From sequence record PP328843.1: DNA of 64,000 nt. The stretch is one strand, 5' to 3'. The stretch is from Escherichia phage 215Ecol030PP. The translations under genes and the position numbers were made by a program. Below, one piece after another: positions 6,485-63,948 of the stretch. The number at the start of each line of letters is the position of its first letter. Within the stretch, counting starts at the first letter, position 1. The notes under the pieces are model-generated. The model was not told the DNA's origin. It saw nothing but the letters and a program-made list of their open reading frames with translations, and did no database searches.

Positions 6485-7279
6485 CTACGAATAGGCCCAA
6501 ACATATCCATAAGCAATTTTGCTTTTTCCAGATATGCACTTTTTAATATTAGACATGCATCCTTTAACGGATACAGCTGCGTCTTTAATTTTAGGAAATA
6601 CTCGTAATAATTTTCCAGTAGTATCATATTGAAATACTGGCACATTTCTTTTCTGAGTTATCCCACGTTTAGATTTAGACATTTTTTGTTTAGTTGCATT
6701 AGACATCCTAGAGGGCTTTCCTATGTTATCAGAATAATAATATTTCCATTGAAATCCTCCAGCGGTTTTCCTTTTCCCATCTACACATTGTTTAATTGAA
6801 CTTGAACAGCTATATGACATATCTTCTGCAGCATCTGTAATACATCTATATTTGCGAATAAAATTTCCATTTAAATCATATTGATAAATTGGTTTTCCAG
6901 CATTTCGTCTAGCGTTAGACATGTATTTTTTATTATCATCATCTTTCCAGAACTCTTTCATGCCTTCCGATATTGAGGAAGATACGGCTGTTTTAATCCA
7001 TCCATACATTTTATTATTTAGTCTTGTTCCGTCAGAACTATAACACATCATACGAATAGCTAAAGCCAATTTAGGAAGTCTATAAATTTTAAATAATAAT
7101 AAATGCGCGGTAAAATGTTCTTCTGGTGTCAAAAGAACTAAATTAGTTTTATCATCTGTACCACCCATACATCTAGGAATTATATGATGAGTTTCAGTAT
7201 AGTATGTCAAAAGACTTTTATCATTGCCTCTGTTTAGTCCTTTTTCGATCAGTAAATTATATATGTTTAAATAATTCAT
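6485..7279 (-). mobile_element. freestanding HNH homing endonuclease gene (Mob family, mobB-like position) with tandem C-terminal DNA-binding repeats
   Basis: 264-aa ORF: MNYLNIYNLLIEK..., HNH core HHIIPRCMGGTDDKTNLVLLTPEEHFTAH, two C-terminal repeats (IYQYDLNGNFIRKYRCITDAA... / VFQYDTTGKLLRVFPKIKDAA...) typical of intron-encoded-nuclease DNA-binding modules. Confidence 0.8.
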
Positions 7280-11303: not shown

Positions 11304-11774
11304 TTAATCATGTTTCCACACCCCATCGGTATTTGACCAAAGTCGCTGATTATCTGATCCTCGCCACAACTTTTTGGTCGGAAGATTTTTCTCATACTTC
11401 CCATCAATAATAACATCAACATATTTAAGCATTTCTAGTTGTTTAATATCTTCAAACTTATATCCTGTCCACAACCAGATATCTTTCTTCGGAAATCTTG
11501 CTTTAACCCAAGAAACTAAATTTGAAATCTCTTCTCGGTTCTGTGGATAAAGTGGGTCACCACCGGTTAAGGTAAGGCCTTGGATATACGATTTGCTTAA
11601 ATGGGACGCAAGTTCTTTAACGGTATTCATAGTGAATAACTGTCCGTTACGAGCATTCCAAGTACTACGATTATAACAACCTTCGCATTTATGCAAACAT
11701 CCAGTGACGAAGAGAACGACCCTGCATCCAGGACCATTAACAAAGCAGCACGGGTATATTCTATCATAATTCAT
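11304..11774 (-). CDS. nrdG: anaerobic ribonucleotide reductase activating protein NrdG (radical SAM)
   Basis: MNYDRIYPCCFVNGPGCRVVLFVTGCLHKCEGCYN... (CxxxCxxC cluster motif), 156 aa from the Met at 11774. Confidence 0.85.
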   Translation of the reverse strand: MNYDRIYPCCFVNGPGCRVVLFVTGCLHKCEGCYNRSTWNARNGQLFTMNTVKELASHLSKSYIQGLTLTGGDPLYPQNREEISNLVSWVKARFPKKDIWLWTGYKFEDIKQLEMLKYVDVIIDGKYEKNLPTKKLWRGSDNQRLWSNTDGVWKHD

Positions 11775-12396
11775 CTTTATATTTCCAAGTATATCCCTTA
11801 TGAATAGATTGAATTCCTTTGCAACATTTATAAACAGCAGAATGAAAAAATCCTGCATTTCTTATTTCAGTTGCTCCAGTTAGTTCTATTGTATTTCCGT
11901 CTGGTGAATAGCCAATAACCGTTTTGGTGTTAAAGCGATTTCTAGAACTATTTTTGATATGCTCTTTATGACTAGTAGACAAAGTTCTTCCTGTTAGCCC
12001 ATCAGATATCCTTTTTCCAAAATCATCAGGAAGAGTTACTTTAGACCTAGCTATGCTCATTAGCTTCTTAGTTTTATCGCTTCTTTTTGCGCCACGCTGA
12101 TTTTCAAATTTCTTAGCTTTTGCATACGCGTATTGTGAAGAAGTAACTTTTCTATGCTTACTATTACTCATTATCCAATATGCATCATACATCTTTCCAC
12201 CATATATTTTAGCCAATAAATGGTGAGCAGTATAGTGGGCCTTATAAGTTAAAAATACTAAGTTGTCTAAATCATCTGAACCACCCATACTTCTTGGAAT
12301 TATATGATGAAGTTCATACCCGGCTTTAGTTTGACGGGGCTTAGATGGGTGTTCAGCAGAATTAACTAGATTTGAATAGATTCTGTCATAATTCAT
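11764..12396 (-). mobile_element. freestanding HNH homing endonuclease gene (Mob family, mobC-like position between nrdG and nrdD)
   Basis: 210-aa ORF MNYDRIYSNLVNSAEH..., HNH core HHIIPRSMGGSDDLDNLVFLTYKAHYTAH; stop overlaps the nrdG start. Confidence 0.8.
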
Positions 12397-12408
12397 TGGT
12401 GTTTAACC

Positions 12409-13708
12409 CTATGCATGTTTTACTCGTTTTACCATTTCTTTCATTTTACCTAAATTCCATGGAACAACGCTAGGAGTTCCAAGATATCCGCATGTTCTTC
12501 TTATTGTGTTCATCTTTTTAGGATCAGTTTCTCCACAAATAGAACAAACAAATCCGTTTTCAGTAGGAGTCATTTCATGGGTACTTCCACACGTAAAACA
12601 TTTATCTACTGGCATATTAACACCAAAATAATCTAAATGTTGTGCAGCATAATCCCATACAGCCTCAAGACCTTTTAAGTTATTTTTCATATCAGGAAGT
12701 TCAACATAAGAAATGTGACCACCTGTCGCAATGAAATGATATGGCGCTTCACGAGAAATCTTTTCAAACGGAGTAATATTTTCTTCTACTGAAACATGGA
12801 AACTGTTAGTGTACCAACCTTTATCAGTAACATCCTTTACACTTCCATATTTTTCTGTATCGAGTTTACAGAAGCGATAACAAAGGTTTTCAGCAGGAGT
12901 CGAATATAAACTAAAAGCAAATCCAGTTCTTTCAGTCCACTGTTTAAGACGAGCATTCATTTTAGTTAAAATTTCTCGTCCAATATCACGACCGGCAAGA
13001 ATATTCAATTCGTGAATACCAATGTATCCTAGGGACACTGAACTTCTACCGTTTTTAAATAACTCAATTATGTCGTCATCAGGTTTAAGACGAACCCCGA
13101 ATGCACCTTCTTGGTAAAGAATAGGAGCAACAGTCGCTTTAACTCCTTTTAAGGAACTAATTCTACACATCAAAGCTTCAAAACATAAATCCATTCGCTC
13201 ATTGAATAATTCAGTAAATTTCTGTTCATTGAACTGTGTTCCAATATAAGAATCTAACGCGATGCGAGGAAGATTCAGTGTTACAACACCAAGATTATTA
13301 CGTCCATCAAGAATTTCATTACCAGTCGAATCTTTCCATACGCTCAAGAAACTACGGCAACCCATTGGAGAAACAGGAATAGATGAACCAGTGATAGCTT
13401 TATTGTTCTTAGCTGAAATAATATCAGGATACATCCTTTTGCTTGCACACTCTAGAGCAAGCTGCTTAATATCATAGTTCGGATCGTCTTTATAAAGATT
13501 AACACCTTCTTCAACAAACATAACAAGCTTAGGGAAAATAGGAGTTATCCCATCACGACCGAGACCTTTAATACGATTTTTCAGAATTGCTTTCTGAATC
13601 ATTCGTTCAGTCCAGTCAGTTCCCGTACCAAATGTAATTGTTACAAAAGGAGTCTGTCCGTTTGAACTGAAAAGTGTATTTACTTCATCATTATATTCAG
13701 CATGAGTC
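12409..13708 (-). CDS. nrdD: anaerobic ribonucleotide reductase NrdD, exon 2 (5' boundary approximate, +/-15 nt)
   Basis: Translation ...EVNTLFSSNGQTPFVTITFG... to C-terminal glycyl-radical region (RTCGYLG) and Zn-ribbon CFTCGS...CSICG; no credible start codon of its own. Confidence 0.8.
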
Positions 13709-13714
13709 GCAAAT

Positions 13715-13919
13715 TCATGCTCGTTTATATGAAACAACAAAATTTGGATAGTCCATAGATATGCAACGTTCTTTTATAGTGCTAGGATGAAAATTTAGCG
13801 CTTTAGCTGCTTCTATATAAGACGTATACTTAATACCGTCAACAACCACATATTCAGGAACTTTATGAATAGTAGTCTTTATCTTTTATTTTAGTACAAC
13901 GTCTTTTTATCCATTTCAT
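13715..13919 (-). pseudogene. remnant of intron-encoded homing endonuclease (short N-terminal ORF plus out-of-frame C-terminal DNA-binding motif)
   Basis: ATG at 13917..13919 preceded by GAGGTGAAACA gives MKWIKRRCTKIKDKDYYS-stop; in another frame ...VVDGIKYTSYIEAAKALNFHPSTIKERCISMDYPNFVVSYKRA-stop resembles C-terminal helix-turn-helix tails of phage homing endonucleases. Confidence 0.55.
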
Positions 13920-13948
13920 TGTTTCACCTCGTATTCATAAGATAATCT

Positions 13949-13956
13949 TATTTATA
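13949..13956 (-). promoter_or_regulatory. late promoter (TATAAATA) inside the nrdD intron
   Basis: Minus-strand TATAAATA about 30 nt upstream of the intron ORF start. Confidence 0.55.
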
Positions 13957-14169
13957 CAAGATGACTGCTGCATGTCGCCATGCAGATTAGACTATATCTT
14001 CATCTTTCGATGCCGGCCGTTTCGAATAGCATTAGCTTCTATTCTACACCGCTACATTCATCACGGTTAGTCGTTAGGCATTTAGTTCAAAAGAACATTT
14101 AGCACGGGATTGTCTACTAGAGAGGTTCCCCGTTTAGACCGGTTTTACATGAGCCTGAATTAAATTAAC

Positions 14170-14705
14170 TCATACGCCTGGAATGCATCGTATACATCTT
14201 TTTCTGTTTTAGATTGAGCATAATTCAACGCATCAGCGATTTGCCATTTTTCTGCATCCTCAATATGTTTTGCATAGGTGCGTTTAACATAAGGAGAAAG
14301 TACTTTATCTACATTTGCAAAAGTCGTTCCGCCATATTGATGGGAAGCAACCTGCGCAGTAATTTGTGCCATAATTGCAGTAGCAACGCCAATTGATTTA
14401 GGAGTTTCAATCTGTGCATTACCTAGCTTAAATCCGTTCTCAAGCATTCCTTTTAAATCTACTAAACAGCAATTAGTAAATGGAAGAGCAGGGGAATAAT
14501 CAATATCATGGAAATGGATAATTCCGCTTTCATGCGCTTTCATAATAAAAGACGGGACCATATTTTTGGCAATGTGTTTAGACACAATACCAGCCATAAG
14601 GTCCCGTTGAGTTGGAAAAACACGAGAATCTTTATTAGCATTCTCGTTTAAAAGGTCTTTATTAGTTTTATGAATCAATCCTTCAATTTCTTTTTCAATT
14701 GTCAT
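14170..14705 (-). CDS. nrdD: anaerobic ribonucleotide reductase NrdD, exon 1 (3' boundary approximate)
   Basis: MTIEKEIEGLIHKTNKDLL...KDVYDAFQAY then in-frame stop inside the intron; continues in exon 2. Confidence 0.8.

Positions 14706-61437: not shown

Positions 61438-63948
<2,511 letters not shown>

Follow-up and report, generated by a model that had tools for sequence, protein, structure and literature searches.

The interval between nrdD and nrdG, which Sandegren, Nord and Sjoberg reportedly sequenced in 18 phages in 2005, houses the gene analysed here, an HNH open reading frame (ORF) in a 64,000-nucleotide (nt) stretch of DNA from Escherichia phage 215Ecol030PP (sequence record PP328843.1; the whole stretch is called the window below). 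The interval was already known as a slot with mobC and segH as alternative occupants (Sandegren et al., 2005, NAR 33:6203, as cited in later literature). The genome is that of a Tequatrovirus, with identities at this locus of ~99% to phages ELT1 and SHFML-11 and of 96% to T4. Judged by its sequence, the HNH ORF is T4 mobC, a homing-endonuclease gene of the Mob type: its product is 99.5% identical to T4 MobC, it likewise lies between nrdD and nrdG, and it shares with the T4 Mob family (mobA-E; PMC2988022) the HNH motif, the promoter-less cassette layout and the overlap with an upstream ORF. As a gene it does not differ from T4 mobC, whereas the nrdD 3' flank does, a 12-nt spacer standing in the window where the T4 nrdD stop overlaps the mobC ATG (ATGA).

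The other occupant of the slot, segH, resembles mobC in being an endonuclease gene whose stop overlaps the nrdG ATG, but it belongs to the GIY-YIG family, has its left joint in the nrdD 3' end rather than in nrdG and lacks the nrdG-start repeat. In mobA (T4 gene 39/60) and mobE (Aeromonas phage Aeh1 nrdA), cassette and host gene ends are interlocked as they are at mobC (PMC2988022; bioRxiv 10.1101/2022.08.31.505936). Those insertions split the host gene, whereas at mobC the host nrdG stays intact and the endonuclease makes use of a second copy of the first nrdG codons. Host sequence also serves for translation initiation of the endonuclease ORFs in group I introns of fungal mitochondria, which are fused in frame to the upstream exon; unlike these, mobC involves neither intron nor splicing, and the few codons in common exist in two copies instead of being read through. 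For the td intron, one-sided homing, its other junction formed at microhomologies by illegitimate double-strand-break repair, was described on laboratory substrates (Parker, Belisle and Belfort, 1999, Genetics 153:1513; summary in PMC2988022). As far as that summary goes, the cases are alike in having long homology on one flank (here nrdG), microhomology on the other (here the 11-nt GACAGAATCTA) and unrelated sequence beyond it. They differ in that the td substrates were engineered whereas mobC is a natural, intergeneric case concerning a free-standing gene, with the microhomology in coding sequence and an in-frame fusion that supplies the endonuclease start codon.

The account that we consider probable is that mobC entered by in-frame fusion to the start of the resident nrdG, at a 21-nt sequence (21-mer) common to both genes and through one-sided homing. 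Its additions to what is known of mobC are a mapped joint and a reading of the first codons as host-derived, which the comparisons below suggest. No mention of the shared codons or of the joint was found in the papers on mobC that were consulted, and an earlier notice in Sandegren et al. (2005) is possible.

The mobC insertion and its flanking repeat

Both mobC (ATGAATTATGACAGAATCTAT) and nrdG (ATGAATTATGATAGAATATAC) open with codons for MNYDRIY, and 18 of the 21 bases are identical, the mismatches falling at nt 12, 18 and 21 (coordinates are collected in Table 1). The near-identity of the two 5' ends pointed out in a preliminary description of this DNA is therefore real. Its further statement that the nrdG start codon overlaps the HNH stop needed correction, as it is not these codons but the ORFs that overlap, by 11 nt (ATGAATTATGA), the mobC stop TGA (11766..11764) being nt 9-11 of nrdG. 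The true start of nrdG is the ATG at 11774 and not the upstream ATG of a longer mechanical ORF. Alignment of the 5' ends together with their flanks, which the same description had proposed, gave identity at background level outside the 21-mer (22/60 upstream and 13/69 downstream). Degenerate codons agree between the two window copies in 3 of 6 cases. With up to three mismatches allowed, the 21-mer was found in the window at these two sites only, against 0.01 expected for raw DNA, a figure that overstates the significance because the 21-mer encodes a protein-family signature.

Empty sites were read in nine Tequatrovirus IMG/VR contigs and in phage U5, where ...catgcatagggttaaacacca is followed directly by ATGAATTATGATAGA... 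and nrdD runs straight into nrdG with an ATGA stop/start overlap. The string catgcatagggttaaacacca, spacer included, also precedes mobC in T4 and in the window; at the empty sites ATGAATTATGA comes next. An empty-site query compared with T4 (row H134) aligned over query positions 1-321, stopping exactly at the 21-mer, and because the alignment ends there the insertion, 622 bp long, is bounded on either side by the 21-mer as an imperfect direct repeat. This was the outcome of the comparison with HNH-less nrdG-nrdD intervals for which the preliminary description had called; the length of 622 base pairs (bp) is the spacing of the two 21-mers and was also read from the alignment to empty sites. 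Across genomes the two copies match at 17-19 of 21 positions, and they are homogenised in none.

An empty nrdD-nrdG slot is the commonest arrangement among related records, and close relatives lack mobC there: the uninterrupted junction was found in up to 587 of 842 related records (an upper bound, a few of these spanning a segH-like insertion) and mobC in 31 records. Precise loss of mobC through the 21-bp repeats was searched for with a synthetic excision product (the T4 nrdD end joined to T4-type nrdG), which is intact in no record, and there is no sign of repeat-mediated excision in the records searched in this way. Exact-string scans of IMG/VR and JGI metagenome contigs with a mobC-specific 26-mer gave zero matches and added no further occupied contexts.

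The left joint in Jiaodavirus

The Klebsiella Jiaodavirus phages Shark_ER15, Wolf_ER13 and Boboto also carry mobC, and the junctions were read in Shark_ER15 and Boboto. Their empty relatives (PKO111 and the loci L001 and L024) have an additional 80-codon ORF between nrdD and nrdG and read ...gaggtaaggttca, then ATGAATTTCGACAGAATCTAC, then ccttct, the nrdG start being MNFDRIY. In Shark_ER15 and Boboto the same ...gaggtaaggttca is followed by ATGAATTTCGACAGAATCTAT and then by the body of mobC, beginning tcaaatc, downstream of which nrdG opens with T4-type ATGAATTATGATAGAAT....

Of the 633 bases of mobC, 631 are the same in Boboto and T4, and the sole differences, at nt 8 and 9, reproduce codon 3 of the resident nrdG (TTC, Phe). 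This Phe is not a family variant, since position 3 is Tyr in 107 of 107 N-termini of the Mob family and Phe in none. Upstream of the joint, identity of Shark_ER15 to its empty relative is 92-100% (mostly 98-100%), against 44-85% to T4; across mobC its identity to T4 is 98-100%. The left flanks of donor and recipient are unrelated, consisting of the nrdD 3' end in the former and the 80-codon ORF in the latter. Because local upstream sequence and the local TTC come before and T4-type mobC comes after, the left joint falls after nt 9, still of the recipient (TTC), and before nt 21, already of the donor (T), within the 11-nt microhomology. On the right, Boboto nrdG is T4-like to ~nt 110, with two differences (nt 66 and nt 114), and of local type from nt 124, so that the donor tract ends between nt 110 and 124 and ~110 nt were co-converted with mobC in Boboto and Shark_ER15. 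The diagnostic value of nt 8-9 presumes that Jiaodavirus-type phages have no native ATGAATTAT nrdG start and that no ATGAATTTC Mob start exists elsewhere. On these alignments the start codon, the translation start region and codons 1-3 of Jiaodavirus mobC are those of the recipient nrdG.

N-terminal signatures of the Mob family and of NrdG

Relatives of MobC were collected by an exhaustive HMMER search (13,297 cluster representatives at E <= 0.001), which superseded a word-indexed protein search that had given 12 relatives, and N-termini were surveyed in 160 relatives, namely the best 150 of the 13,297 representatives and those from the word-indexed search. A scan of IMG/VR for MobC relatives gave a single weak partial match. 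Within the survey, 107 of the 160 relatives begin with M[N/D]Yxx[I/V/L/H/C][Y/H], most commonly as MNYQRIY; position 4 is Asp in 2 of the 107, and position 5 of the surveyed N-termini is K or R in 78% (R alone in 33%). MobC itself reads MNYDRIYSNLV, fitting the signature M-[N/D]-Y-x-[K/R]-I-Y-x-x-L-[I/V] in register with the HNH core, which was recognised by Pfam (HNH, PF01844, 26.9 bits against a cut-off of 21.4, residues 28-50) and in which ELHHIIPRSMGGSDDLDNLVFL...H aligns with solved HNH domains.

NrdG was identified by Pfam (Fer4_12, E = 2.7e-50; Radical_SAM, E = 1.1e-7), by the cluster sequence CLHKCEGC and by its place adjoining nrdD, and it starts with MN[Y/F]DR[I/F]Y or V[R/K]YDRIY in 27 T4-like loci, whether or not an endonuclease gene is present. 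Its fold alignment to pyruvate formate-lyase activase begins at residue 8, and the MNYDRIY residues precede the conserved fold. A search of solved structures yielded no NrdG structure and matched MobC in the HNH core only, with nothing on its first seven residues. The Mob N-terminal motif does coincide with the NrdG N-terminus, as had been suggested, and the 5' ends of mobC and nrdG would be ~70-85% identical by chance, given Mob starts of the form MNYx[K/R]IYxxL[I/V] and NrdG starts of the form MN[Y/F]DRIY.

Other Mob genes were compared with the nrdG 21-mer directly. Two of these stand at unrelated loci in the window, at 62364 on the plus strand and at 7279 on the minus strand (MNYLNIYNLLI); as a control, neither has a 5' end in common with its downstream neighbour gene. 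The match was 17/21 for the former, which lies between what we take to be genes 13 and 14, 15/21 for the Mob gene upstream of alpha-gt, 18/21 for a MobC-like gene of phage KP27 and 18/21 for P0069, a distant MobC relative whose gene lies between gp5-like and gp6 baseplate genes and whose product also begins exactly MNYDRIY. The preliminary description had reasoned that a 5' sequence common to Mob genes regardless of location would be a family signature and not a local duplication; within the genome this very nearly describes the situation (15-18/21 for unrelated Mob genes), and the Jiaodavirus joint goes beyond it.

The closest non-identical MobC relatives retain their own starts, MNYHKIY in P0013 (47% identical) and MNYQKIY in KP27, whose MobC-like gene is 44% identical, lies directly upstream of nrdG and has its own upstream context. 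Comparison of KP27 (L035 2468..3153) with an empty relative (L023 2471..3015) showed that this gene replaces ~530 nt of an unrelated ORF and the first 15 nt of nrdG, the NrdG start being MNYIRIY in KP27 and MNYDRIY in its empty relatives. The KP27 cassette has its right boundary no more than ~15 nt into nrdG; here too the cassette joins at the 5' end of nrdG. In a separate set of T4-like IMG/VR contigs (L002-L004 and L013-L018), nrdG starts with GTG (VRYDRIY or VKYDRIY) and the nrdD stop TGA lies at nrdG nt 9-11, which is the position of the mobC stop in T4; nrdG nt 10-21 of L013-L018 (GACAGAATCTAT) are identical to mobC nt 10-21.

The T4 lineage and the nrdG mosaic

The one base diagnostic of cassette DNA in the T4-lineage left copy is nt 18 (C), Tequatrovirus empty alleles having T or A there. 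An origin of the 'DR' codons by fusion is nonetheless likely for this lineage, because the closest relatives have QK or HK and Asp is rare at position 4. The proposal that the endonuclease gene took its 5' end from nrdG thus stands for the Jiaodavirus copies and is likely but unproven for the T4 lineage, where nt 1-17 are ambiguous.

From nt ~105 to ~300, T4-type nrdG agrees with Jiaodavirus nrdG at ~95% identity and bears very little resemblance to any other Tequatrovirus allele examined; in Tequatrovirus this tract was found only together with mobC. About 300 nt of foreign nrdG accompanied mobC in T4 and in the window, and mobC clearly reached T4 by lateral transfer. At the protein level, residues ~45-100 of T4-type NrdG (QLFTMNTVKELASHLSKSYIQ...) are of the Jiaodavirus type and not of the Tequatrovirus type (IPFTGETLEQLIECLNNDYIE...), making the reference T4 nrdG an intergeneric chimera. 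Ten nrdG positions (nt 63, 72, 75, 96, 106-110 and 136) are fixed in 4/4 mobC-carrying alleles and absent from 15 others; these private changes surround the CX3CX2C codons and include AAATC -> CGTAG. The stretch that they define is the smallest piece of nrdG to accompany mobC in every case, and nrdG nt 63-110 are put forward, with low confidence and from three lineages, as a candidate MobC target or immunity region.

The flanks of mobC in the window are themselves composite. A patch of segH/U5 type within T4-type nrdG (nt 18-51; PCCF where T4 has PCDF) is partly present in Shark_ER15 as well. On the other side, a segH-type nrdD end as in RB3 and ECO4 (...KEMVKRVKHA, stop TAG) is followed by the T4-type leftover GGTTAAACACCA and ATGA, the two nrdD alleles being joined out of register at the common string CATGCATAGG with 16 extra bases not present in T4. 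A single simple history for these flanks (segH-type nrdD end, nt 18-51 patch and T4-type remainder) was considered and rejected, as at least 4 crossovers are needed in any scenario. As regards segH itself, the gene in ECO4 (L034 1985..2815) and RB3 (L033) must start at ATGCATAGG (MHRYYIIYKITN...) to include the GIY-YIG motif, and this ATG lies inside the last nrdD codons. In the RB3 annotation segH is called 'segD' and given a downstream ATG, and nrdG is started from an internal TTG; both starts look mis-annotated.

Alternative explanations

Similarity of the two starts could be pure coincidence, MNYDRIY being native to MobC and a gene with its own start having been inserted exactly before the nrdG ATG with nothing taken from nrdG. 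The occurrence of the MNYx[K/R]IY signature at many unrelated loci, the exact 7-mer of P0069 and the 15-18/21 agreement of unrelated Mob genes with nrdG, with synonymous codons agreeing no better than expected, all speak for this, while the rarity of Asp at position 4 and the QK or HK of the closest MobC relatives speak against it. What decides the matter is the Jiaodavirus copies, in which the two sole differences recreate the resident TTC (Phe, 0/107) and the resident upstream sequence is kept; coincidence is refuted by this joint as a complete explanation, could now account only for the source of nt 10-17 in T4-lineage copies, and was judged quite unlikely overall. A transposition-like insertion at a staggered cut, duplicating 21 bp of target, would explain why the insertion is flanked by direct repeats. 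Such repeats should, however, be identical when made, yet the left copy is of the recipient type and the right one of the donor type, and in Boboto, the most recent insertion, in which mobC nt 10-633 are still identical to T4, the 21-mers differ at 4 of 21 positions (17/21 match). We also know of no HNH homing endonuclease that transposes with target duplication, which weighs further against a target-site duplication, and the idea is extremely improbable.

Gene conversion after insertion, by which a differing mobC start was homogenised to that of nrdG, is made conceivable by two copies lying 622 bp apart in a highly recombinogenic phage and by a 'DR' that is unusual for the family. It would have the left copy track the right one, and no such case was seen: the copies are homogenised in no genome (17-19/21), and the Jiaodavirus left copy matches not the adjacent nrdG but the ancestral local nrdG, which is gone from that genome, leaving conversion very unlikely. 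The reverse direction, in which nrdG obtained its 5' end from mobC, draws on the similarity itself and nothing further; as the nrdG start is found in 27 T4-like loci of several genera, the slot is empty in most related records and mobC occurs in 31, its probability is practically nil.

Fusion at the resident nrdG start, probable as it is, has several observations to contend with. Within the window alone, the 21-mer similarity appears indistinguishable from a family signature; nt 1-17 of the T4-lineage left copy are assignable to neither host nor cassette, the 'DR' codons of that lineage may be native to the cassette, and P0069 has the same first seven residues at an unrelated locus. The window nrdG is a patchy mosaic (segH/U5-type at nt 18-51) that is a misfit with a single simple event. 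Occupied contexts number three only (T4-type, window-type and Jiaodavirus), in 31 records, and Shark_ER15, Wolf_ER13 and Boboto may stem from one transfer, in which case the use of microhomology could be a one-off. Finally, Table 1 of PMC2988022 lists the activity of mobC as not determined and its target as unknown. Both explanations offered in the preliminary description are partly right and are linked, in that chance similarity of motifs supplied the microhomology for the joint.

Proposed mechanism and expression

In the mechanism proposed here, a break in the recipient nrdG would have been repaired from a mobC-carrying phage; that MobC made the break, where it cut and by which pathway repair proceeded are inferred. 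On the right side the repair would have used ordinary nrdG homology and dragged in 110-300 nt of donor nrdG, and on the left side it would have been joined in the 21-mer microhomology wherever the DNA upstream of nrdG was unrelated. The mobile cassette would begin between nt 10 and nt 18 of mobC, run to nt 633 and be followed by a fresh nrdG 5' end, its own start codon not being carried; at the new site the translation start region and first codons of the resident nrdG would complete the mobC reading frame in frame, and the similarity of Mob and NrdG starts would preserve the register of the Mob motif in the fusion.

Expression would follow from the same arrangement. mobC is predicted to take over the initiation context of nrdG, namely the ATGA overlap with nrdD in T4 and a GAGG/AAGG ribosome-binding site in Jiaodavirus, and nrdG is predicted to be coupled anew to the mobC end by the 11-nt overlap, with restart inside the last 11 nt of mobC. 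The overlap of mobC with its upstream ORF is given as 24 bp in PMC2988022, with a ribosome-binding site 27 nt upstream, against the 4-nt ATGA of the RefSeq T4 annotation and sequence. A consensus scan for promoters and terminators at the junctions found fewer promoter-like sites than in shuffled sequence.

A more far-reaching version is offered tentatively, as something rather unlikely: mobC could be a start-codon-less mobile cassette whose N-terminus is kept NrdG-like by selection, so that any nrdG start might serve as left homology arm and source of translation signals and allow invasion despite unrelated upstream DNA. The cleavage site would then lie in the region of the nrdG radical-SAM Cys motif (nt ~60-115), the site of the private changes including AAATC -> CGTAG.

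Other features of the window

The features described above are listed in Table 1 together with two that lie outside the locus. The product of the Mob-type gene at 62364 has a Cys/His-rich C-terminal part (CPHCG...CPHC); to our knowledge this position is without an endonuclease gene in T4. In nrdD, which is interrupted by a group I intron, the endonuclease gene of the intron, I-TevII in T4, is apparently absent or present as a remnant only, because the ORF pieces are only ~420 nt apart and a 44-codon ORF (13715..13849) overlaps the exon ORF.

Table 1. Positions of features in the window
Feature	Position	Strand	Remarks
nrdG, anaerobic ribonucleotide reductase activase, 156 amino acids	11304..11774	minus	Pfam and T4 annotation
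nrdG nt ~105-300, Jiaodavirus-type tract	11475..11670	minus	co-converted flank that arrived with mobC
nrdG nt 63-110, around radical-SAM CX3CX2C	11665..11712	minus	9/10 positions private to mobC-carrying alleles
nrdG nt 18-51, segH/U5-type patch	11724..11757		within T4-type nrdG
Right 21-mer copy ATGAATTATGATAGAATATAC, nrdG codons 1-7	11754..11774	minus	also contains mobC stop TGA
mobC, free-standing HNH homing-endonuclease gene, 210 amino acids	11764..12396	minus	one base (nt 425) off T4 mobC
622-bp insertion relative to empty-slot phages	11775..12396	minus	one possible register; all registers inside the repeat are equivalent
Left 21-mer copy ATGAATTATGACAGAATCTAT, mobC codons 1-7	12376..12396	minus	occupies the nrdG-start position of empty-slot phages
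12-nt spacer GGTTAAACACCA	12397..12408	minus	untranslated remnant of the last codons of T4-type nrdD (AGG GTT AAA CAC CAA TGA)
Composite nrdD end, segH-type then T4-type leftover	12397..12470	minus	
nrdD final ~100 nt		minus	allele type of segH-carrying phages (...KEMVKRVKHA*)
nrdD 3' exon	12409..13740	minus	extent of the ORF as listed; exon end at 12409
nrdD interval with the group I intron	13715..14203	minus	Rfam RF00028, 70.9 bits, 13968..14203
Mob-type HNH gene, 270 amino acids	62364..63176	plus	ATG overlaps upstream stop (ATGA)

Implications

How free-standing endonuclease genes enter new sites and cross between phages with little flanking homology has so far mostly been inferred. At the present locus one junction of a natural intergeneric transfer could be mapped to an 11-nt microhomology, the transferred gene being identical except at the joint. 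For annotation it holds a caution, in that a string common to neighbouring genes looked like a scar, proved to be mostly a family motif and is a recombination joint all the same. The odd translation start region of mobC is explained as that of nrdG, and part of the nrdG of T4 itself is foreign DNA brought in with mobC. A MobC target among the first ~120 nt of nrdG is predicted from the linked tract, and under the model the 21-mer would be required for entry where the recipient upstream DNA is unrelated.

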